DNA of 64,000 bases from Actinomycetes bacterium (GCA_021809105.1 JAKBAM010000002.1:201025-265024), one strand, 5' to 3'; positions 1-15,075 are shown, numbered from the stretch's first letter. A program made the numbers and translations. Notes: a model not told the origin generated them from the sequence alone.

Positions 1-3000
1 TCGTCGCATGCGGCGACGACCCGGCCGCCAAGTCGTCGACGCTGGCCTGCGACAGCCAGTACACCTTCGAGGATGCCTGCGTGCCGGTCCTGTACCCAGG
101 CGACCAGCAGGAGGTGCTCGACCTGGGGGTGCACGCCTTTTACATGTCCCGATTCGCCGGGTGCTGGGTCGGTATCAAGATGGTGACTGCCGTCGCCGAC
201 GGCATGGGCACCACCGACCTCGGGGCCGACCGCCATCAGCCGTCGGCCCCTCTCGGTGTGCACGTGGACGGGGAGCCCTGGACCCACCGGCCGCTGACGA
301 CCGTTGGGACCCACGCCGTTCCCGGTCAGGAGATGCTGGTCGCCCACAGCCGGCTGGAGGCGGCCAAGGCCTATGCGCGCCACAACGGGATCGATCGGGT
401 CCTCGGCGCGGCTGCGGGCGCCCGCCTGGGGGTCGTCTGCGCGGGCAAGACCTACTTCGACGTCGTGCAGGCCTTCGCCGACCTGGGTGTGGGACTGGGC
501 GACCTCGAAGGGATCGGGATACGGGTGATGAAGCTCGGCATGACCTGGCCCTTGGTCGAGCAGACCGCCATCGAGTTCGCCTCGTCGGTCGAGGAGATCC
601 TCGTCGTGGAGGAGAAGCGCCCGTTCGTGGAATCGCAGCTGCGGGCGGTGCTCCACGAAGCCGGTTTGCGCACTCCTGTCTCCGGCAAGCGTGACGGCAG
701 CGGGAGCCCGCTGGTGTCGCTTGCCGGCGAGCTCGACCCGTCCGCCGTGCAGAAGGCCATTGTCCGGCTGGTGCCTGAGCTGCAGGCGCCGCCCACCGCC
801 ACCAGGAAGACCATCCCGCTCGTACCGCTGCCTGGCCGGCCGCCCGGCTTCTGCAGCGGGTGTCCTCACAACCGGTCCACCGTCTTCCCCGACGGCGCCC
901 TGGTGGGGGGCGGCGTGGGATGCCACGGAATCATGTACTTCGAGGCCCGGCACCTGGGAATGCGGAGCATGCCGCCGACCCCGATGGGAGCGGAGGGCGT
1001 GCCCTGGATCGGCTTGGCTCCCTTCGTAGAGGAGCCCCATCTGATCCAGAACCTCGGTGACGGCACGCTCAGCCACTCGGGCACGCTGGCTATCAGATCC
1101 AGCGTCGCTGCGGGGGTCGACATCACGTTCAAGATCCTCTACAACACCGCCGTCGCCATGACCGGCGGCCAGGAGGTCACCGGCTTGATGGACGTCCCAT
1201 CGATGACGCGAGCCCTGCAGGCCGAGGGTGTAAGGCGCATCGTGGTCTGCGCAGAGGACCCCGGCCACTACGGCCGTGGAGCCAGTTGGGCAACGGGAGT
1301 CGAAGTCGTGGGGCGGGAGCGGCTGGCGAAAAAGCAGGAGGAGCTACGCCAGGTCCCAGGCGTCACGGTGCTGATCTACGACCAGCGCTGTGCGGCCGAG
1401 GCCCGACGGCTGCGTAAGCGGGGCCTCCTGCCCGAACCTCCGCAACGGGTGGTGATCAACGACGCCGTGTGCGAGGGATGCGGCGACTGCAGTACCAAGA
1501 GCAACTGCCTGTCGGTCCTCCCGTTGGCAACTGAGTTCGGCGAGAAGCGGCAGATCCACGACTCCTCCTGCAACCGCGACTACAGCTGCCTCGAGGGGGA
1601 CTGCCCGTCCTTCGTCACCATCACCCCGATCAAGAAGCAGGAAGGCCGCAAGCCGGCGGGAACCTGGAGGCCGCTGCCGGCCGGGGACCTCCCACTGCCC
1701 CAGGTGCCAGAGGTCGAGTCGCCCTACGGCATCTATTTCACCGGCATCGGCGGGACCGGAGTCGTGACCGCCAACCGCATCCTGGCCAGTGCAGCTCGCG
1801 CCGCCGGTTTCCACGTCGGCGGCCTGGACCAGACCGGACTATCGCAGAAGGCCGGGGCGGTGGTCTCGAATCTGCACCTGGCTCGCCACCGGGAGCAGCT
1901 GGGTTCGGCGACGATCGGTTCCGGCGGCGCCGACCTCTACCTGTCCGGCGACATCCTCCAGGCGGCCGGCGAGAAGCATTTGGACAAGATCGGCGCAGGT
2001 CGGACGGTAGCGGTGGTGGATCGTGACGTCACCCCGACGGCCGCCATGCTGCAAACAGCTTCGGTAGCTCCCGACGTCAACGACCTCGAAGCAGTCATCG
2101 CCGATCGGACAGGCCCCGACCGCGTCGCCTTCGTCGACTCGAAGGTCATGGCGGAGGCCCTCTTCGGCAACCACCTGCTGGCCAACGTCATCCTGGTGGG
2201 CGCCGCTTTCCAGATGGGAGGTCTCCCGTTTGCGCTCGATGACCTGGACCTGGCGATAGGTGAGGTGTCGCCCGGTGGTGCGGAGCAGACCCGGGCGGCC
2301 TTCGCATGGGGTCGCTGGGCCGCCCACGACCCGGCCACCGTCGCCGGGGCAGTCGTCTCGGCGGCCGGCGCCGTTGATGGCGCGGTGCCTGGGGTCCACG
2401 ACCCCACTCCGGCGGCTATGTCGGCGGCGGAATCGCTGGTCGCTTCCCGCGACCTGCCCGACGGGGTCAGGGACCTCGCCACCCGCCGGACGGCGCAGGT
2501 CATCGACTACCAAGACACCCGGCGTGGCGTCCGCTACCTCGAGCTGGTGGCGAAGGCGGCCGCGGTCGACTCGGCCGCCCGGATGTGGGCCCTCACCGGG
2601 GCCGTCGCAGACGCCTGGTTCAAGCTCCTCACCTACAAGGACGAGTACGAGGTGGCCCGCCTGCATCTGGCGTCGGATTACCCCCAGCTTGCCCGACAGC
2701 TCGGTATCGACGGTCCCGTCGAGGTTCGCTACCACCTGCACCCGCCAGCGCTGAGGCGCCTCGGCCTGTCACACAAGCTGGCGATGGGGCGGCCGTACGA
2801 GATGTCGTTCCGGGCGCTGAGGGCGATGAAGCGGCTGCGGGAGACGCCACTCGATCCTTTCGGTCGCGACCCCGATCGTAGGGTAGAGCGGGCTCTGATC
2901 CGGGAGTACGAGCGTCTCTTCGCCTCTCTGGGGGGAGTCGACTACGAGACCGCTGTCCGCCTGGCCCGCTCCCCGATGGCGATCCGCGGATACGGGCCGG

Positions 3001-3089
3001 TCAAGCAGGCAGCGGTGGAGCGATGGCAGCGTGACGTGACCGAGCTGACTGGGGGACACTTCGTGCCTCGCCTGGCCAGATCCCGATGA
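1..3089 (+). CDS. indolepyruvate ferredoxin oxidoreductase family protein (fused IorA/IorB type), 5'-partial; runs off the window start
   Basis: The frame is open from nt 3. GDDPAAKSSTL and DSQYTFEDA match the thiamine-PP/POR family. CEGCGDCSTKSNC is a 4Fe-4S ferredoxin motif. About 150 aa of the usual N-terminus are missing. Confidence 0.85.
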   Translation, partial: VACGDDPAAKSSTLACDSQYTFEDACVPVLYPGDQQEVLDLGVHAFYMSRFAGCWVGIKMVTAVADGMGTTDLGADRHQPSAPLGVHVDGEPWTHRPLTTVGTHAVPGQEMLVAHSRLEAAKAYARHNGIDRVLGAAAGARLGVVCAGKTYFDVVQAFADLGVGLGDLEGIGIRVMKLGMTWPLVEQTAIEFASSVEEILVVEEKRPFVESQLRAVLHEAGLRTPVSGKRDGSGSPLVSLAGELDPSAVQKAIVRLVPELQAPPTATRKTIPLVPLPGRPPGFCSGCPHNRSTVFPDGALVGGGVGCHGIMYFEARHLGMRSMPPTPMGAEGVPWIGLAPFVEEPHLIQNLGDGTLSHSGTLAIRSSVAAGVDITFKILYNTAVAMTGGQEVTGLMDVPSMTRALQAEGVRRIVVCAEDPGHYGRGASWATGVEVVGRERLAKKQEELRQVPGVTVLIYDQRCAAEARRLRKRGLLPEPPQRVVINDAVCEGCGDCSTKSNCLSVLPLATEFGEKRQIHDSSCNRDYSCLEGDCPSFVTITPIKKQEGRKPAGTWRPLPAGDLPLPQVPEVESPYGIYFTGIGGTGVVTANRILASAARAAGFHVGGLDQTGLSQKAGAVVSNLHLARHREQLGSATIGSGGADLYLSGDILQAAGEKHLDKIGAGRTVAVVDRDVTPTAAMLQTASVAPDVNDLEAVIADRTGPDRVAFVDSKVMAEALFGNHLLANVILVGAAFQMGGLPFALDDLDLAIGEVSPGGAEQTRAAFAWGRWAAHDPATVAGAVVSAAGAVDGAVPGVHDPTPAAMSAAESLVASRDLPDGVRDLATRRTAQVIDYQDTRRGVRYLELVAKAAAVDSAARMWALTGAVADAWFKLLTYKDEYEVARLHLASDYPQLARQLGIDGPVEVRYHLHPPALRRLGLSHKLAMGRPYEMSFRALRAMKRLRETPLDPFGRDPDRRVERALIREYERLFASLGGVDYETAVRLARSPMAIRGYGPVKQAAVERWQRDVTELTGGHFVPRLARSR

Positions 3090-3769
3090 TCAAGCGCATC
3101 CGATTCGCCCGGCTCCGGCCGGGCGCCACCCCGGAGGACTGGCGCGACACAATGCGGCGCGAAGCGGAGGGTGGTGTCGGGGCGGCTCCTCTTCGGGTGG
3201 TCGTCTGCGAGGTGCTGAGCGGGGACAGTCCGGACGCGCTCCACGACGGTGTGGGCATCGAATGGTTCACGGATGCAGACCACCTCGCTCGGTGCGACGA
3301 GTGGGCGGCCGGCCGGCGCGACGAGGTGCTCGACGGCGCGAGGAGCCCGTTCCTCCTGGCCGAGGAGTCGGTGATGAGGGGTGCTGACTGGCTGGCCCGG
3401 CGCTGGCGGTCGTCAACCGACGTGCTCAAGCACATGGCTCTCGCCCGCCGGGCGGCCGGCCTGACCTCCGAGGAGTTCTCGGCCAGGTGGCGTAGCCGGG
3501 CGGGCACGCTCGGGTCGGCTGCCGGCCCCGTACTGGTCATACCGGAGAGGGCCAAGGGTCAGGCGTACATACAGAACCACGTCCTTCCCGTCCCTCCCGG
3601 CGGATGGCCCTACGACGCCGTCAACGAGGTGTACTTCGATGACATCGAGTCCCTCCGCTACCGGTTGAGCTGGTTCACCGAGAACATGAGCGCTGGCGCC
3701 GAGAACGATCTCGTGAGCACCGCCACCTTCCTCGCATTACGGGAGAGCCTGGTTCTGCCCTTGCGGTAA
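3086..3769 (+). CDS. EthD-like / hypothetical protein
   Basis: ATGA overlap with the upstream IOR stop. 227 aa with two weak EthD-like halves. No strong motif. Confidence 0.4.
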   Translation: MIKRIRFARLRPGATPEDWRDTMRREAEGGVGAAPLRVVVCEVLSGDSPDALHDGVGIEWFTDADHLARCDEWAAGRRDEVLDGARSPFLLAEESVMRGADWLARRWRSSTDVLKHMALARRAAGLTSEEFSARWRSRAGTLGSAAGPVLVIPERAKGQAYIQNHVLPVPPGGWPYDAVNEVYFDDIESLRYRLSWFTENMSAGAENDLVSTATFLALRESLVLPLR

Positions 3770-3832
3770 TGAGCACTCACTCTTAAGCTCTACGGCGGGA
3801 CCGGCGCCGCCGGCCCATGACGGAGGTGTGAG

Positions 3833-5050
3833 ATGGCTCTTGGGGACCTGGGCGGCGACCGAGGCCTCGGTTACCGTCTCATCGACGCGGACCATCATTA
3901 CTACGAGCCGTACGACGCGTTCAGCCGCTTCATCGAGCCGGACTTCGTGGACCGGGCGATCAACGTCCGGGTCGACGAAAATGGCCTCGGCAAGCTGTAC
4001 TTCGGGGACCGGCAGTTTCGGTTCATGCGGGTGACCCAGACGGACTACATCGGCGCGCCGGGCTCCCTGCGCCGGATGCTCGACGACCCCGACAGCGAAG
4101 ACGGCTTCGTCCACCGCCAGATCATCCGGGGATGGGACTACCCCGACATGATGCAACGGGAGCCCCGAGTGGCCAAGATGGACGAGATGGGCGTCGAGTC
4201 GGGCCTGATGCTCGGGACGATGATGCTGCAGGCGGAGAATGAGCTGCACGACGACGTCCCGGCCCTCTACGCCAACATCCGGGCTTACAACCGCTGGCTG
4301 GACGCCGAGTGGGGTTTCGACCGCGACGGCCGCATCATCACGGCGGCGATGATCTCGTTGGTGGACCCGGATCTGGCCATCGCTGAACTGGCCCGTGTCA
4401 TCGACGTGGGAGCCCGAGCCGTGGTCATGAAGCCGGGTCCCCTTTGGGGGCGGTCCCCGCTGGACCCGGCCTACGACGGGTTCTGGGGACGCCTGCAAGA
4501 TGCGGACGTCAAGCTGGTGTTCCACAGCACCGACCCCCGCTATCTTGCCACCCTGGGAGCTGAGTTCGGTGATCCTCCAACGCCTGCGATGCAGGGCCAG
4601 ACCCCGTTCCAGTGGTACCTGATCTCGGGTAAGCCGGTGGCCGACACGCTGGCTTGCTACGTGTTGAACAACCTTTTCGGTCGGTTCCCCCGGCTCACCG
4701 TGGTAGCACTCGAGTGCGGTATCAACTGGGTGGTGCCGCTCCTCCACGACATCGATCACGCCGCCCACATGGGTCGCGCGGGCCGCTGGCCGGGAGGCAA
4801 GGTCGAGGGCCGCCCGAGCGAGGTTCTCATGCAGCACCTTTACGTCTCTCCTTTCTACGAGGAGGACGTCGTAGGCCTCGTCCGCAGCATCGGCGCCGCC
4901 CGGGTGCTCATGGGATCGGACTACCCTCACCCCGAGGGGGTGGCCGATCCCATCGACTGGCTGCGCAAGCTGGAAGGGCTGAGCGACGCCGAGATCCGGA
5001 TGATCATGCGTGACAACGCCGCCCGCCTGCTCGGCATCGACGCGCGCTGA
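3833..5050 (+). CDS. amidohydrolase family protein (amidohydrolase_2 / ACMSD-LigW-like metal-dependent hydrolase)
   Basis: N-terminal IDADHHYYEP and C-terminal GSDYPHPEG are typical of PF04909. RBS gaggtgtgag upstream. Confidence 0.75.
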   Translation: MALGDLGGDRGLGYRLIDADHHYYEPYDAFSRFIEPDFVDRAINVRVDENGLGKLYFGDRQFRFMRVTQTDYIGAPGSLRRMLDDPDSEDGFVHRQIIRGWDYPDMMQREPRVAKMDEMGVESGLMLGTMMLQAENELHDDVPALYANIRAYNRWLDAEWGFDRDGRIITAAMISLVDPDLAIAELARVIDVGARAVVMKPGPLWGRSPLDPAYDGFWGRLQDADVKLVFHSTDPRYLATLGAEFGDPPTPAMQGQTPFQWYLISGKPVADTLACYVLNNLFGRFPRLTVVALECGINWVVPLLHDIDHAAHMGRAGRWPGGKVEGRPSEVLMQHLYVSPFYEEDVVGLVRSIGAARVLMGSDYPHPEGVADPIDWLRKLEGLSDAEIRMIMRDNAARLLGIDAR

Positions 5051-5102
5051 GCGGACCAGCCGCCACGACAGGCACCGAAGACAGGGACTGAGGAGAGAGA
5101 CC

Positions 5103-6287
5103 GTGGACAAAGAAGCCCTCGATCGCAGCATCGCCCGGCGGCTCATCGATCACATCGAACACAAGACCACCGACATGGTCGACAGTGTTCTCGAGCTACC
5201 GGCTGACATCTACAGCTCCGACGCGCACTACCGGCACGAGGTGCACGTGCTCTTCAGGCAGCGCCCGCTCGTGTTCTGCCTGTCGGGGGCCCTGCCCGGC
5301 CCGAACAGCTACATCACCATCGACGTGCTCGGGGTGCCCCTGTTGATCACGCGCGACGGCGACGCCAAGCTTCACGCCTTCGCCAATGTCTGTCGGCATC
5401 GGGGCGTGAGAATCGTCGACGGCCACGGCGAGAGCCGTCGCTTCACCTGTCCCTTTCATGCGTGGGTCTACGACACGGCCGGCAAGCTGGTCGGCGTCCC
5501 CGTCCCCGAAGGTTTCGAGGGCATGTGCCGGGAGCGTAAAGGCCTGCTGGAGCTGCCGGTGGCCGAGGGGTACGGGCTAGTGCTGGGACGGCTGGAGCCC
5601 GGGCCGGAGGTTGACGTGGATCGCTACCTCGGGCCCGGTCTGGTCGAGGAGCTTTCCCTCCTGGACTTCGCCGATTGGCAGCTGATCGGTGAGCCGCACA
5701 TCCATCCCGTCGAAGCCAACTGGAAGACGACTCTCGACACGTTCCGGGAGAATTACCATTTCAACTACCTGCACCGCACAACGCTGGCCGAGTACGCCTA
5801 CGGCGGGGTGCTGACCTTCGATGCCTTCGGGGACCACGTCCGCAACGCATCCGCCATCCGTAGCATCGACGAGCTGAGGGGTGTACCCGAGGAGGAGTGG
5901 ACGGACCCCTCCCGCCACTTCAGCTATCAGTACGCCCTCTTTCCCAATGTGTGCCTCGCCTTCGACGCCCGCCATGTCGAGTTCTGGCAGATCGTCCCCG
6001 CAGGCCCCCGCCGCTGCGAGGTGCTCCACATGGCTTACGTGCGCACGGGGATCCCTGATGGAGAGGTCAAGACGCTCACCGACATGGCGCCCTGGATCTG
6101 CCGGGCCGTGGTCGACGGCGAGGACTTCTGGGTGGCAGGGCGCACCGAGCCCGGCTTGTCCGCCGGCCTCCTCGACAAGGTTGTGTTCGGTCGCAACGAG
6201 CCGGCCCCCCAGCACCTGCACCGGGGCTTCCTGGCTGCCCTGGAGCAATCGGACGGACCCTCGGCTTCAGCCCCGTCGGGCTTTTGA
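5103..6287 (+). CDS. Rieske (2Fe-2S) aromatic-ring-hydroxylating oxygenase alpha subunit
   Basis: CRHRG...CPFHAW Rieske motif. GTG start at 5103 preceded by gaggagagag. No beta subunit adjacent. Confidence 0.8.
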   Translation: MDKEALDRSIARRLIDHIEHKTTDMVDSVLELPADIYSSDAHYRHEVHVLFRQRPLVFCLSGALPGPNSYITIDVLGVPLLITRDGDAKLHAFANVCRHRGVRIVDGHGESRRFTCPFHAWVYDTAGKLVGVPVPEGFEGMCRERKGLLELPVAEGYGLVLGRLEPGPEVDVDRYLGPGLVEELSLLDFADWQLIGEPHIHPVEANWKTTLDTFRENYHFNYLHRTTLAEYAYGGVLTFDAFGDHVRNASAIRSIDELRGVPEEEWTDPSRHFSYQYALFPNVCLAFDARHVEFWQIVPAGPRRCEVLHMAYVRTGIPDGEVKTLTDMAPWICRAVVDGEDFWVAGRTEPGLSAGLLDKVVFGRNEPAPQHLHRGFLAALEQSDGPSASAPSGF

Positions 6288-6968
6288 CGGTGTGATGGGC
6301 GGGAAGAAGCCCCGGCAGGTCCCCTCGGCGGCCAGGGCCACCGCCCGGTCTCGGTCGAACTTCCGATTGTGATGGCTCTCGAGGGCCAGGACGAGGGCTG
6401 TCCCCAGGACGGCCCTGGCCGAGATGTCCGGCGACTCGAAGTTGAAGCCGTACCTGTCCTCCACCTGCCGCCACGCGTCGGCGAGGCGATCCATGGCCAC
6501 GGAGAGATGCTGCTTGTAGAACCGCCTGGCGACCTGAGGGTCACCGAAGAGCACCAGGCCCAGGAGCGGGAGGACCTCCGTCAAGGTGGCCATGAGCTGC
6601 CGGTACAACCCGTTCATGGTCTCGAGCTGGCGATCGGGCGTGAGCGGCTGGTCCCGGTCGACGACCTCCGAGGCTGCGACCAGCGCATCGACCGCCTCGC
6701 GCAACGGCTCGACAACCGCTTCGTAGAAGAGTTGCTCCTTGCTCTCGAAGTGCCGGTAGATCACCCCCTCGCTGATCTTGCCGTACTCCGCGATGACCTT
6801 GATGGTGGTGCCGTTCACGTCGCCTGTCTCGCTGAACGCGCGACGGGCTGCCTGGAGGATCGAGCTCCTTCGCTCGTCCGCGGTGAGCCGGCGGGCGCGT
6901 GGGGCCTGCTTGGAAGCGACCGGGTTGGACGCGGATCTAGCCACGGGGCCTGACAGGTGCGCTGGCAT
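6267..6968 (-). CDS. TetR/AcrR family transcriptional regulator
   Basis: HTH region SSILQAARRAFSETGDVNGTTIKVIAEYGKISEGVIYRHF. ATG at 6968 chosen; the ORF extends to 7166 but the extension is low-complexity. Confidence 0.7.
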   Translation of the reverse strand: MPAHLSGPVARSASNPVASKQAPRARRLTADERRSSILQAARRAFSETGDVNGTTIKVIAEYGKISEGVIYRHFESKEQLFYEAVVEPLREAVDALVAASEVVDRDQPLTPDRQLETMNGLYRQLMATLTEVLPLLGLVLFGDPQVARRFYKQHLSVAMDRLADAWRQVEDRYGFNFESPDISARAVLGTALVLALESHHNRKFDRDRAVALAAEGTCRGFFPPITPSKARRG

Positions 6969-7061: not shown

Positions 7062-7090
7062 TGTCAAGTGAGTGTTTACTGACATTGCCC
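7062..7090. promoter_or_regulatory. AT-rich inverted repeat TGTCA-N14-TGACA in the TetR/ACAD divergent intergenic region; candidate operator/promoter
   Basis: ctgtcaagtgagtgtttactgacattg is AT-rich within about 70% GC DNA. It lies between divergent genes 6968(-) and 7165(+). Confidence 0.3.
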
Positions 7091-7164
7091 GGGTCGGGCG
7101 TGTGGAGCTACGGTTTGACCGACCCGGTCGAGGGGTCTGGACTCGTTGCCGAGGGTGAGGGTGC

Positions 7165-8313
7165 ATGGACTTCGAGATGGGGGTAGAGGTCGAGGCGCTG
7201 CGTCGGGAACTGCGGGACCTCGTCGCGCATCACGTTCCTTCCGATTATCTGGGTGCGTTCACCGACGACCCGGCCGACCTCGAGATGGCGCAGGGGTTCT
7301 GTCGGCTACTGGCGGACCGGGGCCTCTTGTGCCCGGCGTGGCCGGGGGAGTGGGGCGGGCGGGACGCGTCACCTTGGGAGCAGGCTGCGGTCCGCGAGGA
7401 GATGTGGGCGCACCACGAACCGCGAGGTGCGCAGTACATGGGGGTCAACTGGGTGGGCCCGACCATCATGCGTCACGGCACTCGTGAGCAGCAGGGCCTG
7501 CACCTCCCGCCGATCGCTCGAGGGGAGGTCATCTGGTGCCAGGGTTTCAGCGAACCGAACGCCGGCTCGGATCTCGCCTCATTGCAGACGATGGCCCGGC
7601 GTGACGGGGATGGCTGGCGGGTGTCGGGACAGAAGATCTGGACCTCCTATGCCACGATGGCGCAGTGGTGCTTCCTGCTAGCGCGCACCTCGCGCGAGGA
7701 GCGCAAACAACAGGGTCTGACCATCTTCCTCCTCCCGATGGCGGCCGCGGGCATCGACGTCCGCCCCATCGCCACCATGATCGGGCCTCACCACCTGAAC
7801 GAGGTGTTCTTCGATGGGGTCTGGGTCACCGATGCGGACGTGCTCGGTGCGGTGGGAGACGGCTGGAGGGTCGTACAGGAAGTCCTGTCGTTCGAGCGGG
7901 TGGGTATCGCCCGATACGCCCGATGCGAGCGCCTTCTCATCTGGGCTCCGGCCGCCCTCGGGGCCGAGTGGGACGACCTGCCGGAGGACCTGCACGGCCG
8001 TTGGGCGCGGATGGTGATGCATGCCCGGCGCGCCCGGCTGCTCGCATACCGCGTGGTGGACCTGCAGTCGCGCGGTCAGGTCCGGCCCGGGGACGCCGCG
8101 GCGTACCGGATCGCCGTGACCAGGCTGGATCAGGAGAGCGCGCAGGTACTGATGGACATCATCGGGTTCGCTGCGCTGGGCGAGGGTGAGGGCCTCCGGT
8201 TCCGGCGCGCTGTGGAGGATCACTGGCGGTACTCGATCTCCGCGACCGTCGCGTCGGGCAGTATCGAGATGCAGCGGATCCTGCTGGCCAGGGCGCTCAT
8301 GGCGGCGTCGTGA
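7165..8313 (+). CDS. acyl-CoA dehydrogenase family protein (alpha-type subunit)
   Basis: ACAD fold across the N, middle and C domains. 382 aa. Confidence 0.85.
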   Translation: MDFEMGVEVEALRRELRDLVAHHVPSDYLGAFTDDPADLEMAQGFCRLLADRGLLCPAWPGEWGGRDASPWEQAAVREEMWAHHEPRGAQYMGVNWVGPTIMRHGTREQQGLHLPPIARGEVIWCQGFSEPNAGSDLASLQTMARRDGDGWRVSGQKIWTSYATMAQWCFLLARTSREERKQQGLTIFLLPMAAAGIDVRPIATMIGPHHLNEVFFDGVWVTDADVLGAVGDGWRVVQEVLSFERVGIARYARCERLLIWAPAALGAEWDDLPEDLHGRWARMVMHARRARLLAYRVVDLQSRGQVRPGDAAAYRIAVTRLDQESAQVLMDIIGFAALGEGEGLRFRRAVEDHWRYSISATVASGSIEMQRILLARALMAAS

Positions 8314-9290
8314 ACATAGAGCTGTCCGACGAGGCGGAGGAGTACGGACGCCAAGCCCGCCGAGCCCTCGGGTCTGCCGGTGGCGACCGGCTCGCACAAC
8401 AGGCTGAGGCCGATCCCCATGCGCGGGGCGCTCTGGTCGATCCCGTTTTCGAGGCCCTCGGTGCCTGGGAGCTCGATCCGAGAGCAGGATCGGAGGAGCT
8501 CGAGGCGGGGGCGGCTCTGTGCCGCAGCGCGGGCTGGTGGGCCCTGGCCTACCCGGTGGCGGAACGGCTTTGCCGGCCGCGGGACCTAGATGTCGACGGG
8601 CTGGTGGTGATTGGTCCCGGACCGCCCGCTGCGCCGGTCGGCGGTCTTCGGATGGCGTGGGCCGCGGTGTCCCTCGACGGTTGGCGCGCCGTGTGCGCCG
8701 CGAGTCCGCTTCGTGGCCCGGTTCGCAAGTCTGGGTATGTCGTCGGGCTCGAGGTCGGCTCGTTCGAGCGGGGAGGCCAGGGCGATGTCGCGCTCGGGCT
8801 CGTGCTGCCGTGCTGGACGCTGCTCGGCATGCTCGACCGGGCGATGTCGCTCACCCGGGCGCACATCGCGGCCCGCGAGCAGTTCGGCCAGCCTCTCGCC
8901 GCTTTCCAAGGCGTGCAGTTCCAGCTGACAGACGCGGAGGTGGAGCGGCTGGGCTTCGAGGCGTTGGCCACCCACGCACTGTGGAGCATCGAAGCCGGTC
9001 GCGCGGATGCCGTGGACGATGCTCTTGCGCTGCGGCTGGCCGCCATCGAGGCGGCCGACACGGTGTTTCGCGTCTGCCACCAGTTGCACGGAGCGATCGG
9101 GTTCTGTGACGAGACGACTCTCTCATGGGTGTCACGGGCCAGTGTGCCGCTGCGCCGGCTGCCTCTCAACCTGGCGGGCACGGGCGCGGCGCTAACGCGC
9201 CGCCTCGGCCGGCGCGGCCTGTCGGGGCTGTTCGGACCGAATGACGAGCCGTCACCGACTTTGCCGGCCCTGCGCCCGGAGAGGCGCTGA
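8310..9290 (+). CDS. acyl-CoA dehydrogenase family protein (short, beta-type partner)
   Basis: GTGA overlap with the upstream ACAD. 326 aa with ACAD C-terminal-like helices. The pair arrangement matches heteromeric ChsE/FadE enzymes. Confidence 0.7.
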   Translation: MNIELSDEAEEYGRQARRALGSAGGDRLAQQAEADPHARGALVDPVFEALGAWELDPRAGSEELEAGAALCRSAGWWALAYPVAERLCRPRDLDVDGLVVIGPGPPAAPVGGLRMAWAAVSLDGWRAVCAASPLRGPVRKSGYVVGLEVGSFERGGQGDVALGLVLPCWTLLGMLDRAMSLTRAHIAAREQFGQPLAAFQGVQFQLTDAEVERLGFEALATHALWSIEAGRADAVDDALALRLAAIEAADTVFRVCHQLHGAIGFCDETTLSWVSRASVPLRRLPLNLAGTGAALTRRLGRRGLSGLFGPNDEPSPTLPALRPERR

Positions 9291-9291: not shown

Positions 9292-10494
9292 GTGGCGGTT
9301 CCGGACCGGGATCTGGCCGAGTTCCGCTCCACCGTCGGGGACTGGTGCAGGGCGAACGTGCCGAAGGACTGGCGCCGCGCGCAAGCGGGCGCTCCCGAGG
9401 AACAGTTTGTGGCGTTCCAGAAGGCGTGGTTCCAGGAGCTTCGCCAGGTCGGGTGGGCGGTGCCGCACTGGCCGGCGGAGTGGGGCGGCGGGATGTCGGT
9501 CGCCGAACAGATCGTCCTATACCAGGAGCTTGCCGCAAATGACGCTCCCCGGCTGGTGCTGGCCTTCGTCGCCATCCACCATGCCGCCTCCACCCTGCTC
9601 GTGGCTGGTACCGACGAGCAGCGCCGCTGCCATCTCCCGGCCATCCTGGACGGGGAGCTGTGGGTGCAGGGTTTCTCCGAGCCCGATGCCGGCTCCGATC
9701 TGGCCAGCCTCCGCACGACCGGGCGGCGTGAGGGCGATGTGTTCGTCGTCAACGGCCAGAAGCTGTGGTCGAGCGGCGCCGCACACGCCGATTGGTGCCT
9801 CCTGCTGGTCCGTACCGACCCGGGCGCGCCGAAGCGGGAGGGGATCTCCTACTTCCTCATGGACATGCGCACGCCCGGCATCGATGTGCGCCCGATCAGG
9901 AACGCCAACGGCGAGTCGCACTTCTGTGAGATGTTCCTCGACGATGTGGTGATCCCGGTGTCGGGTCTGGTCGGGCCCGAGCACGGTGGCTGGCGTGTAG
10001 CGCAGGAGACGCTCTCCGCGGAGCGGGGGATGACGATGCTCGAGCTATCAGAACGCCTCGGTAGAGCCGGCTTCACCTGGCTCCTGGAAGCCTGCCGCGT
10101 TCGGGGGCCCTCCGGGGATCGATTGCTCGACGACCCGGTTGTAGCGGACCGGCTCGCGGCGTTCGAGATCGAGGTCGCCGGGCTGCGCTCCCTCTGCCGT
10201 CGCGTGGTGGAGCGCCACGAGGCCGGCGCCTCCGCCCCCGCCGAAGCCTCGATCGCCAAGCTGCTCTACAGCGAGTTGCTGCAGCGGGTGATGGATTTCG
10301 CCACCGAGGTGGTGGGGCTCGAGGCTCACACCCAGCTGACCAAGCCCCTCTCGAGCGGCTGGGAGTCAGGGGCTTGGATGCTCGACTACATCGGCTCCTA
10401 CGAGTGGACGATCCCCGGAGGCACCAGCGAGATACAGCGGACCATCATCGGTGAGCGGGGGCTCGGGTTACCCCGAGAACCCGCGGCGCGCTGA
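9292..10494 (+). CDS. acyl-CoA dehydrogenase family protein (alpha-type subunit)
   Basis: GTG start 1 nt after the previous TGA. The WVQGFSEPDAGSDLASL motif is shared with the gene at 7165 (CQGFSEPNAGSDLASL). Confidence 0.8.
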   Translation: MAVPDRDLAEFRSTVGDWCRANVPKDWRRAQAGAPEEQFVAFQKAWFQELRQVGWAVPHWPAEWGGGMSVAEQIVLYQELAANDAPRLVLAFVAIHHAASTLLVAGTDEQRRCHLPAILDGELWVQGFSEPDAGSDLASLRTTGRREGDVFVVNGQKLWSSGAAHADWCLLLVRTDPGAPKREGISYFLMDMRTPGIDVRPIRNANGESHFCEMFLDDVVIPVSGLVGPEHGGWRVAQETLSAERGMTMLELSERLGRAGFTWLLEACRVRGPSGDRLLDDPVVADRLAAFEIEVAGLRSLCRRVVERHEAGASAPAEASIAKLLYSELLQRVMDFATEVVGLEAHTQLTKPLSSGWESGAWMLDYIGSYEWTIPGGTSEIQRTIIGERGLGLPREPAAR

Positions 10495-11609
10495 TGGATT
10501 CAGACTTTGGCGCGGTGCACGACGAGTTGCGCGGTGTGGCCAGGATGATGCTTGCCAATCACAGCCCGCTCACCACCGCGGGAAGGTCGTTTAAGCCGCT
10601 GGACTGGCAGCTGCTGGCGTCCTCGGGCTGGCTGGGCCTCGAGGTGCCGGCGGCCCAGGGGGGAGCCGGGGCAGGTTTCGCCGAGCTGGCCGTGCTCCTG
10701 ACCGAGTTTGGCCGGGTAGCGGCGGCGGCGCCTTACCTGGGCTCGGTCGTCCTCGGCACCGCCGCCCTGAGCCTGCTCGAGGCAAATACCGGGCGTGACC
10801 ACAGGCTCCAGGAGCTGGCGGCGGGTACCAGGCGCGTCGCTGTCGCACTACCGACCGACCGTCCCGAGGTCGGACAGCCCACCGCCCCCTTCCGGATCCG
10901 GCGAGCTGGCTCGGTGCTCGAGGTATCCGGGCGGGCCGGGTTCGTCCCCGACGTCGTCGGCGCCGATGAGATTCTCCTCCTGGCGGCCGACGATCATCGC
11001 CCGGTCCTCGTCGCCGTCGCACCCTCCGCGCCCGGTCTGCAGATCGACGCCCAGCCCGTCGTCGACGAGACGAGGCACCTGGCGGCGGTCATCGCGGACG
11101 GCGTGGAGATCGACCCGGACTCGCTCTGGAGCTTCACCGGCTCACCGGAGGCGGGCGCCGCCAGGCTCGCTGAGCGGGCGATGCTAGCGGTGGCCTGCGA
11201 CAGTTTGGGCCTTGCCACGATGATGATGGAGGCGACGGTCGCATATGTGACAGACCGCTACCAGTTCGGGCGACCGATCGGGTCCTACCAGGCTGTCAAG
11301 CACGCCTGTGCCGACATGCTCGTCGGGATCAGCATCTGCTCGGAGCTGGTGGGTACCGCGGTCGAGGCTCTGAGCAGTGACGAGCCCGGGTCCTGGGTAC
11401 CGGTCTCCATGGCCAAGGCTCACGTGTCGAGCGTGGCGGTGGAGATCGCCGGCAAGGCGATCCAGCTGCACGGTGGCGTCGGGTACACGTGGGAGCGCGG
11501 GCTGCATGCGTACCTGAAGCGCGCGGCCCTCAACCGTTCGCTCTTCGGGTCGCCGATCGCGCACAGGCGGCGGCTCGCGGCACGCTACGCCGGTGAGGGC
11601 AATTCGTGA
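10494..11609 (+). CDS. acyl-CoA dehydrogenase family protein (beta-type partner)
   Basis: ATGA-type overlap with the upstream gene. 371 aa. ACAD C-terminal domain QFGRPIGSYQAVKH. Confidence 0.8.
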   Translation: MDSDFGAVHDELRGVARMMLANHSPLTTAGRSFKPLDWQLLASSGWLGLEVPAAQGGAGAGFAELAVLLTEFGRVAAAAPYLGSVVLGTAALSLLEANTGRDHRLQELAAGTRRVAVALPTDRPEVGQPTAPFRIRRAGSVLEVSGRAGFVPDVVGADEILLLAADDHRPVLVAVAPSAPGLQIDAQPVVDETRHLAAVIADGVEIDPDSLWSFTGSPEAGAARLAERAMLAVACDSLGLATMMMEATVAYVTDRYQFGRPIGSYQAVKHACADMLVGISICSELVGTAVEALSSDEPGSWVPVSMAKAHVSSVAVEIAGKAIQLHGGVGYTWERGLHAYLKRAALNRSLFGSPIAHRRRLAARYAGEGNS

Positions 11610-11667
11610 TGAGTGACTGCTCACCTTGTTATAGTGGTGGGACATCGAGTCGTCGGTCGGGGGTCAC

Positions 11668-12909
11668 ATGGGACGAACGGATGCAGCAGCTGAAGCCAGC
11701 GAAGCACCGCAGCAGGAATTGGACGACGAGTGGTGCCGCCACCACTTCGACCACCTCTCGCCGGCGCTAGCTGCCGATCTGACGGGGACGCTGGCGCGCA
11801 TGCGGTCCATGTGCCCCGTCGCCCACAGCGACCAGTACGACGGTTTCTGGGTCGCCACCGGCTATGAGGACGTGCTGAAGGTGGCGCAGGACTGGGGCAC
11901 CTACAGCTCCGCACACGGCCTGACCGTGCCGCGGGCGCCGATCGCAGTACGCAACCTCCCGGTGGAGGTCGACCCTCCCCTCCACCGGGAGTACAAGCGC
12001 CTCATCAATGCCTATTTCACGCCAGCCGCCGTCGCCCCTTGGGAGGAGCGCACCCGCCGGCTCGTAACGAGCCTCATCGACGCCTTCATCGGGCGGGGTT
12101 CGTGTGACTTCATGGCTGACTTCGCCAGGCCCTACCCTGCCTTGTCCTTTTTCGATGTGGCGCTGAACGCCCCACCCGATGACGTCGAGAAGGTCGCTTA
12201 CATGGCGTCGAAGTCGTCGATCCCGAACGACCCGGAGGCGGCGGCCTGCTGGACGGGGCTATCCGAGTGGATTCGCAGCTTTGTCGCCGAGCGCAGGGCC
12301 GGGCCGCCGAAGGGCGACGTGGTGGATGGAGTCGTCAACGCGCAGGTCGAGGGGCGTCCGATCACCGAGGACGAGATCATCGGCATCCTCCAGCTACTCA
12401 TCTTGGGAGGTCTCGAGACCACCGCCGGGGCGCTCGGGATGATGATGATCCGTCTTTGCGAGCATCCGGAGGTGGTCGCCCTGCTGCGGGATCAGCCCGA
12501 GCGGATTCCCGAGGCGGTCGAGGAGTTGCTCCGGCTCGATCCGCCGTTCATCGCCATCACCCGCACTGCCATGCACGAGGCAGACCTCGGTGGTCAGCGG
12601 ATCGCAGCTGGGGAGAAGGTGATCGTCTCCTGGGCATCGGCCAATCGCGATGAGGCGCAGTTCGAGGCTGCCGACGCGTTCGACCCCGCCCGAAAGGCGA
12701 ATCGCCATCTGGCGTTCGGTGCGGGTCCACATCGCTGTGCCGGCTCCAACCTGGCCAGGATGAACCTTCGAATCGCCCTATCCGAGTTGGTCACGCGCCT
12801 CGGCGACCTGAGGCTTCAGCCTGGCGCCGACGTTCGCTACCACACCACGTTCACTCGCGCCCCGCTGACGGTGCCGATCACCTTTGCTGCCGGGGCAACG
12901 GCGGGTTGA
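11668..12909 (+). CDS. cytochrome P450
   Basis: Heme-binding loop FGAGPHRCAGSNLAR and ExxR motif EELLRLDPP. Confidence 0.9.
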   Translation: MGRTDAAAEASEAPQQELDDEWCRHHFDHLSPALAADLTGTLARMRSMCPVAHSDQYDGFWVATGYEDVLKVAQDWGTYSSAHGLTVPRAPIAVRNLPVEVDPPLHREYKRLINAYFTPAAVAPWEERTRRLVTSLIDAFIGRGSCDFMADFARPYPALSFFDVALNAPPDDVEKVAYMASKSSIPNDPEAAACWTGLSEWIRSFVAERRAGPPKGDVVDGVVNAQVEGRPITEDEIIGILQLLILGGLETTAGALGMMMIRLCEHPEVVALLRDQPERIPEAVEELLRLDPPFIAITRTAMHEADLGGQRIAAGEKVIVSWASANRDEAQFEAADAFDPARKANRHLAFGAGPHRCAGSNLARMNLRIALSELVTRLGDLRLQPGADVRYHTTFTRAPLTVPITFAAGATAG

Positions 12910-12966
12910 GGTGTCGTCAGAGCCTGCTCCGCCGACCGGTCACGACCCGAACACGAGGATGAGGAA

Positions 12967-13212
12967 ATGAGCGTTCCCGAACCGATGATTGCCGGCGCGT
13001 CGACCGATGCGGCGGCGGGCCCGCTACGGGTCGCGGTCGACCCCGACATCTGCCAGGGGCACGCTCGCTGCTGGCAGGTCTGTCCCGAGATCTTCGGTCT
13101 CGACGAGGAGGGGCACGCTGTGGTCGCCGCGACCGAGGTTCCTCCCGAGTTGGCAGAAAAGGTGCAGGAGGCCATGGACAACTGCCCCGAGCGGGCGATC
13201 ACGCTGAACTAG
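12967..13212 (+). CDS. ferredoxin (single-cluster 3Fe-4S/4Fe-4S type, likely P450 redox partner)
   Basis: VAVDPDICQGHARCWQVCPEIF...NCPERAI. Lies immediately downstream of the P450. Confidence 0.8.
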   Translation: MSVPEPMIAGASTDAAAGPLRVAVDPDICQGHARCWQVCPEIFGLDEEGHAVVAATEVPPELAEKVQEAMDNCPERAITLN

Positions 13213-13337
13213 GGGCTGCGAGGGCCTGAAGTGAGCGTTCATGCAATAGGCGGGGCGGCAGCAGCTAAGGTGGTGCTACGTCGGCGGCTTGAGGGCCGTC
13301 CCGACGGCGAGATGTCGATCGACGAGGGGTTCACACG

Positions 13338-14513
13338 ATGCCGCAGCTAGCTGAAGGTTTGCGAGTGGTAGATGCTGACTCGCACATGACGGAACGCCAC
13401 GATCTCTTCACCGCTCGAGCGCCGAAGGGGTACGAGGACAAGGTGCCCCATGTCGAGACCATCGACGGCGAGGAGATGTGGGTCATCGAAGGTAAGACCT
13501 TCGGCCGCGCCGGCTCAGGAGGGACGATCGACCACGCCGGCAAGAAGCACCCCTTCCGAGACTCTCAGGCCGGCTCCTGGGGGATCGACGACGTGCATCC
13601 GGCGGCGTGGGATGCCGGGTCGCGCCTGCGGCTGATGGACGAGAACGGCATCGACGTCCAGGTGCTCTATCCGAACTCCATCGGGCTGGGTGGCCACAAC
13701 CTGGTCAACTCCGTCAAGAACCCGGAGCTTCTCCGGTTGTGCGTCGAGATCTACAACGATGCATTGGCCGAGGTGCAGGAGCAGTCCGGCAATCGCCTGT
13801 TGCCGATGCCGATCATGCCTGCCTGGGATATCGAGGAGTGTGTCCGCGAGGCGCAGCGATGTGCCGAGCTCGGCTATCGGGGTGTCAACATGACGGCCGA
13901 TCCGCAGGACTCCGGCTCGCCCGATCTGGGCCACCGGGCGTGGGATCCGTTCTGGGAGGTCTGCGCCGGGCTCGACCTGCCTGTGCACTTCCACATCGGC
14001 GCCAGCCAGACGGCGCTTGCGTACTTCGGCACGACCTACTGGCCCAGCCAGGACGATTATGTGAAGCCGGCGATCGGGGGCGCGTCACTCTTCCAGAACA
14101 ACTCTCGTGTGCTGCTCAACAGCGCGTACTCAGGGATGTTCGACCGCCACCCCAACCTCAAGATGGTGTCGGTCGAGAGCGGCATCGGGTGGATCCCGTT
14201 CATGCTCGAAGCTATGGATTACGAGCTCGAAGAGAATGCGCCAGAGCATTTTCAAAAGCTTCAAAAACTGCCGTCGGAATATTTCCGCGATAACTGGTAT
14301 GCCACTCTCTGGTTCGAGACCGGCCGCGGTGACCTGCAGCACCTCATCGACTCGGTCGGCGAGGACAAAGTCATGTTCGAGACTGACTTCCCGCACCCGA
14401 CCTGCCTGCATCCCAAGCCGGTCGAAATGGTGAGCGAAAAGATCTCTGAGCTGCGCCCGGAGACGCAGCGTAAGGTGATGGGGGGCAATGCAGTCGCCCT
14501 CTACCGCCTCTAG
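13338..14513 (+). CDS. amidohydrolase family protein (amidohydrolase_2)
   Basis: VVDADSHMTE N-terminus and FETDFPHP C-terminal motif. Paralogous to the gene at 3833. Confidence 0.8.
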   Translation: MPQLAEGLRVVDADSHMTERHDLFTARAPKGYEDKVPHVETIDGEEMWVIEGKTFGRAGSGGTIDHAGKKHPFRDSQAGSWGIDDVHPAAWDAGSRLRLMDENGIDVQVLYPNSIGLGGHNLVNSVKNPELLRLCVEIYNDALAEVQEQSGNRLLPMPIMPAWDIEECVREAQRCAELGYRGVNMTADPQDSGSPDLGHRAWDPFWEVCAGLDLPVHFHIGASQTALAYFGTTYWPSQDDYVKPAIGGASLFQNNSRVLLNSAYSGMFDRHPNLKMVSVESGIGWIPFMLEAMDYELEENAPEHFQKLQKLPSEYFRDNWYATLWFETGRGDLQHLIDSVGEDKVMFETDFPHPTCLHPKPVEMVSEKISELRPETQRKVMGGNAVALYRL

Positions 14514-14523
14514 CGGTCACCTT

Positions 14524-15075
14524 ATGGCTACGACTCCCGAGGTCACCGACGGTGTGAAGATCTACCGGGCCTCGGCGGCCCCCCCGCTGGAGGAGAGCGG
14601 AGCAGTCAGAAGCGACTTCGGCGACAACACGGAGCTGCGGGACGTGGCTGTGAGGTTGGCCAGCTCCGAGTGCTCGCAGGCCCGGCTGCTCGTGCACCAA
14701 TCGAGCGACGAAGGCGGGATGTCGATCGTGTACCTCTTCTTCAAGCCCAACTTTCCATTGTTCCGTCATGCCCACGACGTCAACAGCCTCTACGTAGTGG
14801 TCTCGGGAACGGTTGTGGGGTTGATGGGCGAGAAGACGCTGCGTCCGGGGGACTGCTTCGCGGTGAAGGCGGGGACGCCTTACTATTATACGGCGGGGCC
14901 GGAGGGGGTCGAGGTGCTTGAGATGTTCCGCGATGCCGACACCGCCACCGTGATCTACACCGACGAGAATGACGGGCGGCTCGAAGAGGCGCAGGACGCG
15001 GTCCGAAGCAATGCAGAGGCATGGAGGCAGATCACCTCGGGTCCTCTCTACCGCGCCAATGCCGGGACATCATGA
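14524..15075 (+). CDS. cupin domain protein
   Basis: Beta-barrel pattern HAHDVNSLYVVVSGTVVG...GDCFAVKAGTPYYY. Start chosen at the second ATG just after the upstream stop; the first ATG is at 14488. Confidence 0.5.
   Translation: MATTPEVTDGVKIYRASAAPPLEESGAVRSDFGDNTELRDVAVRLASSECSQARLLVHQSSDEGGMSIVYLFFKPNFPLFRHAHDVNSLYVVVSGTVVGLMGEKTLRPGDCFAVKAGTPYYYTAGPEGVEVLEMFRDADTATVIYTDENDGRLEEAQDAVRSNAEAWRQITSGPLYRANAGTS

Follow-up and report, generated by a model that had tools for sequence, protein, structure and literature searches.

The first 15,075 positions of a 64,000-nt stretch of DNA from an Actinomycetes bacterium (hereafter the window; its source is a 340-kb metagenome contig) carry a cluster of putative oxygenase and acyl-CoA dehydrogenase (ACAD) genes, which is the region under study here and whose enzymes have relatives in several described systems. 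The dit cluster for abietane diterpenoids is composed of DitZ, the alpha-beta dioxygenase DitA1A2 and the extradiol dioxygenase DitC. DitZ, together with PtmU3, AibH2 and SfbO, defines the amidohydrolase-related dinuclear oxygenases (AROs; PMC13154177), marked by an N-terminal D-x-H and a C-terminal D-x-P-H-x-D/E motif, both absent from all characterised hydrolases, decarboxylases and hydratases of PF04909 (PMC13154177, section 7); the diiron, high-potential class of these enzymes usually has no Rieske-ferredoxin partner (PMC13154177). Among Rieske oxygenases, a bridging Glu and an aromatic residue at the position of CntA Y203 delineate the quaternary-ammonium group Va from ring-hydroxylating dioxygenases (PMC7948474), and a Cys-x-x-Cys pair is found in CntA and Stc2, being a property of only some group V members (PMC10952381). 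The alpha2beta2 ACADs are defined by a three-domain alpha subunit with a catalytic Glu and a degenerate beta subunit, and P89 of ChsE4 is a helix-breaking residue linked to an enlarged cavity (PMC11153573).

Genes were called from an open reading frame (ORF) listing, third-position G+C content and Pfam/NCBIfam scans, and every gene that a previous sequence-only reading of this DNA had named in positions 1-15075 was recovered by these profiles, on the strand assigned to it and within 15 kb. The cluster itself is larger: when the source contig was read upstream, it was found to extend at least 6.9 kb to the left of the window start, giving a total of at least 22 kb, of which positions 1-15075 are the right-hand two-thirds. 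It is highly probable that this is a catabolic, multi-oxygenase, acyl-CoA cluster. The more specific account that we favour, with a confidence slightly short of even, is that its genes specify a CoA-dependent route, under repression by TetR, for the breakdown of a carboxylic acid that is bulky, poorly functionalised, aliphatic or alicyclic, and terpenoid-like, not a steroid; the terpenoid-like class of substrate is put forward with modest confidence and, in agreement with the earlier reading, no individual substrate is assigned. The combination of a 2-oxoacid:ferredoxin oxidoreductase of the IOR family, three AROs and a CntA-like Rieske oxygenase is unusual; the kind of pathway, CoA-dependent oxidative catabolism of recalcitrant acids, is known. 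No description of the cluster turned up in literature searches for this set of genes or, outside the ARO papers, for DitZ. The genes of the cluster and its right border are as follows.

L004 636-1844, some 6.3 kb to the left of position 1: U2, the third PF04909 gene, with D-D-H and with DYPHSD, the latter identical to that of DitZ
1-3089, plus strand: IOR-family 2-oxoacid:ferredoxin oxidoreductase, fused alpha-beta (PRK13030, 996 bits against a cut-off of 816; Pfam POR and DUF6537)
3086-3769, plus strand: EthD-like protein (Pfam EthD, PF07110, 24.5 bits against a cut-off of 22), its start overlapping the IOR stop by 4 nt
3833-5050, plus strand: ARO_a, PF04909 by Pfam, with motifs D-H-H and D-Y-P-H-P-E (DYPHPE)
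5103-6287, plus strand: Rieske non-haem iron oxygenase alpha subunit, CntA-like (PF00355 and PF00848; CRH...CPFH; H219/H224)
6267-6968, minus strand: TetR-family regulator, probably 233 residues (Pfam TetR_N); the ORF could extend to 7085 or 7166
7165-8313, plus strand: ACAD1, alpha-type, with N, M and C ACAD domains (pimC_large 179 bits, below cut-off)
8310-9290, plus strand: ACAD2, beta-type, with Pfam Acyl-CoA_dh_1 (C domain) only and weak IpdE2 and pimD_small matches
9292-10494, plus strand: ACAD3, alpha-type, with three ACAD domains (pimC_large 219 bits)
10494-11609, plus strand: ACAD4, beta-type, middle domain undetected (IpdE2 model 136 bits against 450)
11668-12909, plus strand: cytochrome P450 (Pfam p450; haem motif FGAGPHRCAG)
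12967-13212, plus strand: small single-cluster ferredoxin, 81 residues (Pfam Fer4_15/Fer4_13; motif CxxHxxC...CP)
13338-14513, plus strand: ARO_b, PF04909 by Pfam, with D-S-H and a variant C-terminal D-F-P-H-P-T (DFPHPT)
14488-15075, plus strand: cupin-like accessory protein (Cupin_2 24.8 bits, under the gathering score of 27.2), overlapping ARO_b by 26 nt
15159-16406, plus strand: Peripla_BP_6 solute-binding lipoprotein (Pfam 213 bits), a possible uptake component

The upstream 6.9 kb holds a family III CoA-transferase, U2, a second Peripla_BP_6 solute-binding protein (SBP), a luciferase-like oxidoreductase, a short-chain dehydrogenase/reductase (SDR), an Amidohydro_1 protein and the start of the IOR gene. 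For conservation, a locus scan with one genome per species was centred on the Rieske orthologue and comprised 79 loci, 64 of them actinobacterial orthologues; the orthologue counts given below come from tblastn of the window proteins (at least 40% identity) and are taken over those 44 loci whose 10-kb flanks are complete.

The assignment of the three Amidohydro_2 proteins to the ARO family is solid on motifs and match rankings, and they are probably dinuclear metal oxygenases of the diiron kind. The D-x-H motif is present in all three and kept in their orthologues, and its middle residue (gamma1) is hydrophilic in each (D, H or S), as in the diiron enzymes DitZ and PtmU3; the C-terminal D-x-P-H-x-D/E is carried by ARO_a, with Glu as in PtmU3, and by U2. 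The best solved matches of U2 are DitZ (6.5e-66) and PtmU3 (2.6e-31), against 5e-13 for LigW; those of ARO_b are likewise DitZ (5.5e-29) and PtmU3 (9.5e-28), against 1.3e-17 for gamma-resorcylate decarboxylase, the decarboxylases all being at <=1e-17. ARO_a is matched best by 4DZI (6e-71), an uncharacterised TIM-barrel protein which itself has D-N-H and D-W-P-H-G-E, and then by PtmU3 (3.9e-20), against 3e-9 for a decarboxylase. On these motifs and this ranking, the earlier view of the Amidohydro_2 genes as decarboxylases or hydratases of a meta pathway was rejected. The two window proteins had also been called paralogous; both are present, and as their identity is only 23.5% they must be very distant paralogues.

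Besides the PF04909 TIM barrel and the motifs, the AROs of the cluster share with DitZ (abietane diterpenoid hydroxylase, 8UYR) and PtmU3 (platensimycin pathway, 6OMP) the absence of a Rieske-ferredoxin partner and an adjoining set of P450s, SDRs and CoA-transferases. The cluster differs from dit in having no DitA-type alpha-beta dioxygenase and no extradiol dioxygenase. Two ARO loci on Rhodococcus plasmids follow the same logic and are non-orthologous to the cluster: one combines the ARO with a P450, SDRs, CaiB-type transferases, a MaoC pair, DUF35 and Ltp, and the other with a Rieske protein, a P450, an alcohol dehydrogenase, an aldehyde dehydrogenase, a CoA-transferase and an SBP. These loci were considered as orthologous dit-like versions of the cluster and rejected, only the ARO (37-46% identity) and a generic P450 (31-34%) being shared and the Rieske proteins being unrelated; nor are their AROs DitZ itself (35-41% identity). 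U2 is unusually conserved, with 84-92% identity over all 120 listed 90%-identity clusters (hits P0241-P0360); its homologues span Frankia, Actinomadura, Amycolatopsis and Acidimicrobiales, and 7,792 of 8,000 scored candidates lie at E <= 1e-30. The ARO_b subfamily with D-F-P-H-P-T (16 orthologues, L005-L074) may differ in its second metal site, and motif-based ARO censuses would miss it, because D-F-P-H-P-T replaces D-x-P-H-x-D/E.

The whole cluster encodes a P450, the CntA-like alpha-only Rieske protein, the three AROs (two of them in the window) and one small ferredoxin. In the pathway that we favour, these oxygenases would hydroxylate unactivated C-H positions, and the SDR, zinc-dependent alcohol dehydrogenases (Zn-ADH) and luciferase-like oxidoreductases of the cluster family would oxidise the resulting alcohols. 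By the chemistry of its family, the IOR would oxidatively decarboxylate a 2-oxoacid to an acyl-CoA one carbon shorter, with reduction of ferredoxin, a step that would get round a blocked beta-position in the manner of alpha-oxidation. CoA-transferases of family III would activate the acid or exchange CoA, and the two alpha2beta2-type ACADs, with their ChsE4-like Glu and Pro-loop, would desaturate bulky acyl-CoAs for beta-oxidation-like shortening. The TetR protein would bind a palindrome of which degenerate copies sit in the intergenic gaps of the cluster.

Several points weigh against this pathway. No enzyme of the cluster has an orthologue of known substrate, and the window itself encodes no enoyl-CoA hydratase, 3-hydroxyacyl-CoA dehydrogenase or thiolase. 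In ARO_b the last D/E of the published motif is replaced by Thr, as in 16 of 16 orthologues, and identity to the DitZ fragment is 33% for U2 and 25% for the window AROs, so that a substrate cannot be transferred from DitZ or PtmU3. Gene content varies by genome, P450 and ACAD1 being found together in only 5 of the 44 loci. The operator-like sites are not significantly frequent over the whole window (4 observed, 1.97 expected). Finally, both active-site hallmarks of the Rieske protein point to quaternary-ammonium substrates, not to terpenoids (features as in PMC7948474).

This last point is the core of the strongest rival, catabolism of quaternary-ammonium compounds or amino-acid betaines, which we nonetheless regard as unlikely. 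Here the Rieske enzyme would hydroxylate the trimethylammonium-bearing carbon, yielding trimethylamine together with an aldehyde or, where the ammonium group is borne on the alpha-carbon, with a 2-oxoacid; the IOR would turn the 2-oxoacid into an acyl-CoA, and CaiB-family transferases and the ACADs would process CoA esters, as in carnitine metabolism. The Rieske protein (about 390 residues) appears, from alignment and model, to resemble the carnitine oxygenase CntA rather than KshA. In the HMMER alignment, ...DTFRENYHFNYLH of the window is set against ...DNYMECYH.....H of CntA, DTFRENYH aligning with DNYMECYH; Glu (E216) is thereby put at the bridging position of CntA E205, and Phe (residue 214), five positions before the first iron-binding His, at that of CntA Y203. 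Both are group Va features (PMC7948474), and among 30 Rieske orthologues E216 never varies and position 214 is taken by F (19 sequences) or Y (11). The AlphaFold (AF2) model (predicted local distance difference test, pLDDT, 84) superposes best on CntA, with template-modelling (TM) scores of 0.65-0.76 as against 0.62-0.67 for terephthalate dioxygenase; the best NCBIfam match is GbcA (82.5 bits, cut-off 670), and many homologues carry the JGI label choline monooxygenase. The betaine route would also explain the frequent pairing of the Rieske gene with IOR, one of its commonest neighbours (23 of 44 loci), and the CaiB-family transferases. CoA_transf_3 genes recur nearby, as do aldehyde dehydrogenase and methylmalonate-semialdehyde dehydrogenase genes.

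The same protein, however, is no closer by score to CntA than to aromatic dioxygenases (phmmer: terephthalate dioxygenase 88.8 bits, nitrotoluene dioxygenase 83.5, CntA 81.2, Stc2 45.8). The Cys-x-x-Cys beside the iron site is absent, with E-N-Y-H-F where CntA has Cys206/Cys209 (PMC10952381), and a reductase of the phthalate dioxygenase reductase/VanB type (CntB/GbcB), with flavin mononucleotide and a 2Fe-2S cluster, gave no tblastn match in the window, in the upstream DNA or within 10 kb in the 79 loci; the usual neighbour of the Rieske gene is instead the CxxHxxC...CP ferredoxin. For these three reasons full membership of group V (CntAB, GbcAB, Stc2, OxyBAC) is doubtful, although size, the alpha-only build, the bridging Glu, the aromatic residue and the superposition on CntA are shared with it. 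Five oxygenases and two ACADs of the bulky-substrate kind, moreover, are more than a small betaine would call for; the SBPs belong to the LivJ type and not to the betaine-binding one, and no methylamine-handling genes recur in the loci.

That the Rieske gene encodes a lone alpha subunit, as had been noticed before, is borne out by the lack of a PF00866 beta-subunit gene beside it. A SnoaL_4/NTF2-like gene at 20091-20522, 14 kb from the Rieske gene, gives a faint Ring_hydroxyl_B match; it was tried as a displaced beta subunit and rejected, its orthologue being found in no related locus. Another, SnoaL_2 gene lies directly 3' of the Rieske gene in Frankia-type loci (L035, L042, L063).

The next alternative is that there is no single pathway, and that the locus is a hotspot in which independent small operons with different substrates (IOR-Amidohydro_1-EthD, the four ACADs, P450-ferredoxin, the AROs) have gathered. 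Orthologues of the Rieske protein number in the hundreds (62-81% identity), and the 64 actinobacterial loci belong to Actinomadura, Actinocorallia, Frankia/Parafrankia/Pseudofrankia, Nocardia aurantia, Amycolatopsis acididurans, Thermomonospora echinospora, Spirillospora, Trebonia and many metagenome-assembled genomes of Acidimicrobiales. Orthologues of the other proteins were counted in the 44 full loci as follows.

U2: 24 loci, median identity 84%
IOR: 23 loci, 61-73% identity
Amidohydro_1: 22 loci
SDR: 19 loci
Ferredoxin: 19 loci
EthD-like: 17 loci
TetR: 17 loci, 67-79% identity
P450: 17 loci
ACAD1-4: 14-16 loci
ARO_b (PF04909 at 13338-14513): 12 loci
Cupin: 3 loci
ARO_a (PF04909 at 3833-5050): 2 loci
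Binding protein (SBP at 15159-16406): 1 locus
Epimerase: none

The cupin, ARO_a, the SBP and the epimerase are therefore not conserved parts of the cluster. The cupin named in the sequence-only reading does exist as a gene; its match is weak and it is seldom retained. In an orthogroup census, recurrent neighbours absent from the window were aldehyde dehydrogenases, a fused double CoA-transferase, Zn-ADH, a thiolase-like protein, luciferase-like oxidoreductases, D-aminoacylase-like amidohydrolases, methylmalonate-semialdehyde dehydrogenase, a GntR regulator and a SnoaL-like protein; one close relative (U2 homologue 92% identical) has the same toolkit including a thiolase with DUF35, fused CoA-transferases and Zn-ADH. 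A biosynthetic cluster was set aside as a reading, there being no polyketide synthase, nonribosomal peptide synthetase or terpene synthase, and SBPs, aldehyde dehydrogenase, methylmalonate-semialdehyde dehydrogenase, CoA-transferases and FadR/TetR regulators being recurrent.

Across Actinomycetota the gene order is heavily shuffled among genomes and content is variable, as the hotspot explanation would have it: besides the rarity of P450 with ACAD1, IOR and ACAD1 occur together in 7 of the 44 loci. The cluster is thus a mosaic toolkit and not a fixed operon, and the scarce co-occurrence of P450 and ACAD1 means that the modules may serve related, not identical, pathways. On the other side, about 15 orthologous families recur round the one Rieske anchor, from Actinomycetes to Acidimicrobiia, at 50-85% identity, so the grouping is a conserved module and more than chance; and a palindrome is shared by several intergenic gaps, beside different modules. 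Independent operons are, in our estimation, quite improbable. Nor is the term island, which the sequence-only reading had used, supported if it is taken to mean horizontal acquisition, because G+C is 0.63-0.70 over 1-15 kb and about 0.69 for the window, with no compositional break, no tRNA was found in the window, and no integrase or transposase was indicated by Pfam or by the precomputed annotations seen in the window.

The palindrome just mentioned, T(A/G)AGCGAG-NN-CTCGCT(T/C)A (TAAGCGAG-NN-CTCGCTTA), is found in about 20 orthologous loci, in several of them between the TetR gene and its divergent neighbour or just 5' of the Rieske gene. In the window, degenerate copies occur in three gaps of the cluster.

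3768-3781: operator-like half-palindrome AATGAGCACTCACT, in the EthD/ARO_a gap
7067-7080: operator-like site AGTGAGTGTTTACT, in the divergent TetR/ACAD1 intergenic region
11612-11625: operator-like site AGTGACTGCTCACC, in the ACAD4/P450 gap

Two further operator-like sites lie in gaps of the upstream part. As the intergenic DNA of the cluster, about 550 bp, contains three of the four sites in the window, a shared TetR regulon acting through this putative operator is likely but unproven. The start of TetR was probably placed correctly at 233 residues, since its orthologues have 224-237. Nothing informative came from promoter and terminator scans, or from a scan for inverted repeats round the TetR gene. 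Just 5' of ACAD1, at 7089-7131, stands an inverted repeat of 10 bp, CCCGGGTCGG ... CCGACCCGG, whose spacer is 21 nt long; it is distinct from the site at 7067-7080.

Catabolism of sterols or bile acids, to which the sequence-only reading had leaned, would make the ACADs ChsE/IpdE-type enzymes, the P450 a CYP125-like one and the Rieske protein an analogue of KshA; we hold it to be very unlikely. The four ACADs, by domain content and match, are two alpha2beta2-type pairs, as had been proposed: the alpha and beta genes are coupled (the ACAD2 start overlaps the ACAD1 stop by 4 nt, and the ACAD4 start has one base in common with the stop codon of ACAD3), and their closest solved relatives are ChsE4 and Tcur3483/Tcur3481. 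The values are 9e-44 for ChsE4 (4X28_A) and 4e-43 for Tcur3483 (6WY9_A) with ACAD1, 1.3e-46 and 4e-41 for the same two with ACAD3, and 1.2e-26 for Tcur3481 (6WY8_A) and 3.5e-14 for ChsE5 (4X28_D) with ACAD4. The Glu of "SFER" in ACAD1 aligns with ChsE4 E247, and a Pro of ACAD1 with ChsE4 P89. To our knowledge, however, the sole solved alpha2beta2 ACADs are steroid enzymes, so that a steroid best match reflects sampling bias; the window proteins score about 150-160 bits to ChsE4, and they lie far below the cut-off of the IpdE2 model. Equivalogy to IpdE2, PimC or PimD was rejected on the NCBIfam cut-offs (IpdE2 136 against 450 bits; pimC_large 219 and 179 against 624; pimD_small 98 against 653). 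The alpha subunits nevertheless have pimC_large (TIGR03204) as their best NCBIfam match, and the beta subunits match pimD_small (TIGR03203); PimCD, the pimeloyl-CoA dehydrogenase encoded in the pim operon of Rhodopseudomonas palustris, is likewise a large/small-subunit ACAD and acts once an alicyclic or aromatic ring has been opened. Apart from the low scores, the cluster differs from that operon in having no other pim genes.

For the P450, a CYP125 ancestral reconstruction is the best solved match (3e-60; 207 bits over about 353 residues), followed by CYP143 (4e-55), P450cin (1e-51) and then P450terp, CYP101 and P450cam; natural CYP125, CYP142 and CYP124 are not among its best 60 solved P450 matches, all of at least 161 bits. 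Membership of the CYP125 family requires at least 40% identity. The nearest solved relatives (the CYP125 ancestor, P450cin, P450terp, P450cam) hydroxylate sterols or terpenes. The KshA comparison, proposed as a check, was run: 2ZYL and 4QDC match the Rieske domain only (E 5.5e-4 and 1.7e-4), and KshA is absent from the best 50 Foldseek matches. The TetR protein is not of the KstR/KstR2 type, its best solved match being TtgR (1e-9) and KstR2 following at 2.5e-4, both in the helix-turn-helix only, with KstR unlisted.

A thiolase with DUF35 in relatives, and the likenesses to actinobacterial cholesterol genes (ChsE4-ChsE5, IpdE1-IpdE2, CYP125, KshAB, KstR regulon) in adjoining alpha/beta ACAD pairs, E247 and P89 equivalents, a P450, a small ferredoxin, a TetR regulator and CoA-thioester logic, can be added for the steroid assignment. 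The search for steroid-cluster synteny, the lack of which had been named beforehand as part of a refuting result, went against it, with no hallmark gene or synteny found: by Pfam survey, precomputed Pfam labels and annotation of neighbour families, KstD, KshB, Hsa (HsaA-D), Ipd (IpdAB), FadD3 and Mce4-type genes were seen neither in the surveyed window genes nor among recurrent neighbours in the 64 loci, and no steroid-catabolic genes were found among the surveyed genes of the rest of the window. The cluster instead has the IOR, three AROs and the CntA-like Rieske protein, none of which we know as part of a steroid pathway.

Catabolism of aromatic compounds, lignin-derived compounds or indole-3-acetate, with Amidohydro_2 decarboxylases or hydratases, a ring-hydroxylating Rieske enzyme and an IOR acting on arylpyruvates, is the least probable of all. 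In its favour are PF00848 in the Rieske protein, terephthalate, nitrotoluene and biphenyl dioxygenases among its top matches, indolepyruvate as the name substrate of the IOR family and the presence of a (weak, unconserved) cupin. Against it stand the ARO motifs, which no characterised decarboxylase or hydratase of PF04909 carries (PMC13154177, section 7), and the lack of any extradiol or intradiol dioxygenase, beta subunit, cis-diol dehydrogenase or meta-pathway hydrolase in the cluster.

Returning to the favoured terpenoid-like acid pathway, its electron supply deserves separate consideration, as the cluster of at least 22 kb has five oxygenases, one ferredoxin and no reductase gene for them. 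The P450 had been described as having its own ferredoxin. That description does not agree with the related loci: in 12 of the 19 having the ferredoxin, its gene is the immediate upstream neighbour of the Rieske gene, in divergent orientation (L016, L024, L028, L030, L033, L038, L045, L049, L054, L059, L062 and L066, at about 9580-9940), and the P450 orthologue is missing in 13 of the 19. The ferredoxin is therefore better seen as belonging to the cluster or to the Rieske protein; in the window it is shifted to a position after the P450.

The IOR protein has a full length of 1168 residues, starting 417 nt upstream of the window, with the C-terminal approximately 1029 codons inside; even in its window-truncated form it passes the PRK13030 cut-off, the only NCBIfam equivalog cut-off reached in the cluster. 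Next to it, the EthD-like protein matches its family marginally, no single stretch passing and PF07110 being precomputed in about a quarter of the listed homologues, which bear the name EthD-domain proteins. Its AF2 model (pLDDT 92.6) shows two beta-alpha-beta-beta-alpha-beta repeats, i.e., tandem ferredoxin-like (dimeric alpha/beta barrel) domains, and Foldseek gives fold-level likeness only (TM 0.4-0.5), to tandem ABM-type monooxygenases, chalcone isomerase and coproheme decarboxylase. The EthD-like gene co-occurs with IOR in 16 of the 17 loci bearing it, and of the 14 loci with both P450 and IOR, 12 have an unbroken same-strand run of P450, Amidohydro_1, IOR and EthD, most of those loci being without a ferredoxin gene. 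In ethRABCD of Rhodococcus ruber, which consists of the P450 EthB, the ferredoxin EthC, the reductase EthA and EthD, an EthD-domain protein is likewise encoded with a P450/ferredoxin system; the window protein differs in its tandem two-domain build and in being coupled to an IOR, not to a flavoprotein reductase.

It is conceivable, though doubtful, that IOR is the missing reductase of the cluster, passing electrons of a 2-oxoacid, possibly an intermediate of the pathway, through its Fe-S domain to the small CxxHxxC...CP ferredoxin and on to the P450, the Rieske protein and the diiron AROs. The suggestion comes from the lack of a reductase gene in the cluster and of a phthalate dioxygenase reductase/VanB-type one near the Rieske gene in the 79 loci, from the contiguity just described, and from an archaeal precedent. 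Actinobacterial reductases are often encoded elsewhere in the genome, and this stands against it. So does the paralogous IOR of Rhodococcus DK17, located in an acyl-CoA-type catabolic operon without oxygenases, a setting which supports IOR as a pathway enzyme; there is also no preferential co-occurrence of IOR and ferredoxin (both in 8 loci, ferredoxin only in 11, IOR only in 15). The precedent is CYP119 of Sulfolobus, which, as outlined in a passage of PMC9962201 citing Puchkaev et al. (2002), receives 2-oxoacid electrons via an OFOR-family enzyme, a 2-oxoacid:ferredoxin oxidoreductase, and ferredoxin, without NAD(P)H. The CYP119 system is archaeal, reconstituted in vitro and unclustered, whereas the putative link in the window is a genomic one.

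To the right the cluster is bordered by the Peripla_BP_6 binding protein and the epimerase, followed by unrelated genes (PspA, FTR1 and others), and the remainder of the window consists of housekeeping genes and a hopanoid biosynthesis cluster (51695-63549, mostly minus strand) with the following members.

51695-52834: DegT-type aminotransferase
53568-54716: glycosyltransferase
55484-56488: radical-SAM/DUF3463 protein, HpnH-like
56492-58030: PNP_UDP_1-LytB/IspH fusion
58031-60142: squalene-hopene cyclase
59998-61059: polyprenyl synthase
61064-62668: amine-oxidase-type desaturase
62467-63549: squalene/phytoene synthase

Elsewhere in the window, an FA_desaturase_2 gene (21453-22352) adjoins a gene for a methyltransferase of the cyclopropane-mycolate-synthase type (22366-23280), on the minus strand; positions 24593-27460 encode a 955-residue fusion of a GlcD-like FAD-linked oxidase with a 4Fe-4S dicluster domain; an HpcH/citrate-lyase-beta-like gene lies near an acetyl-CoA hydrolase/transferase gene (34244-37016); and there are two large helicases, a DEAD-box one with DUF3516 (38684-41260, 858 residues) and an SNF2-family one with DUF3670 (46771-50052, 1093 residues).

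Taken together, these comparisons carry a warning that alpha2beta2 ACAD pairs with a P450 should not be read as a steroid signature. The cultured carriers of the module (Actinomadura, Amycolatopsis, Nocardia, Frankia, Thermomonospora) offer a handle for a substrate search, the candidate TetR operator could be used to fish for the inducer, and the locus gives a genomic setting in which to look for the proteins that supply electrons to high-potential AROs and to a Rieske oxygenase of the CntA-like kind, IOR being one possible source; were the doubtful IOR-driven supply true, it would constitute a pyridine-nucleotide-independent, substrate-powered oxygenase system in aerobic actinobacteria. If the favoured pathway is real, thousands of "amidohydrolase" genes of soil actinobacteria in such neighbourhoods would be misannotated oxygenases, belonging to a widespread, unstudied pathway for recalcitrant hydrophobic acids.

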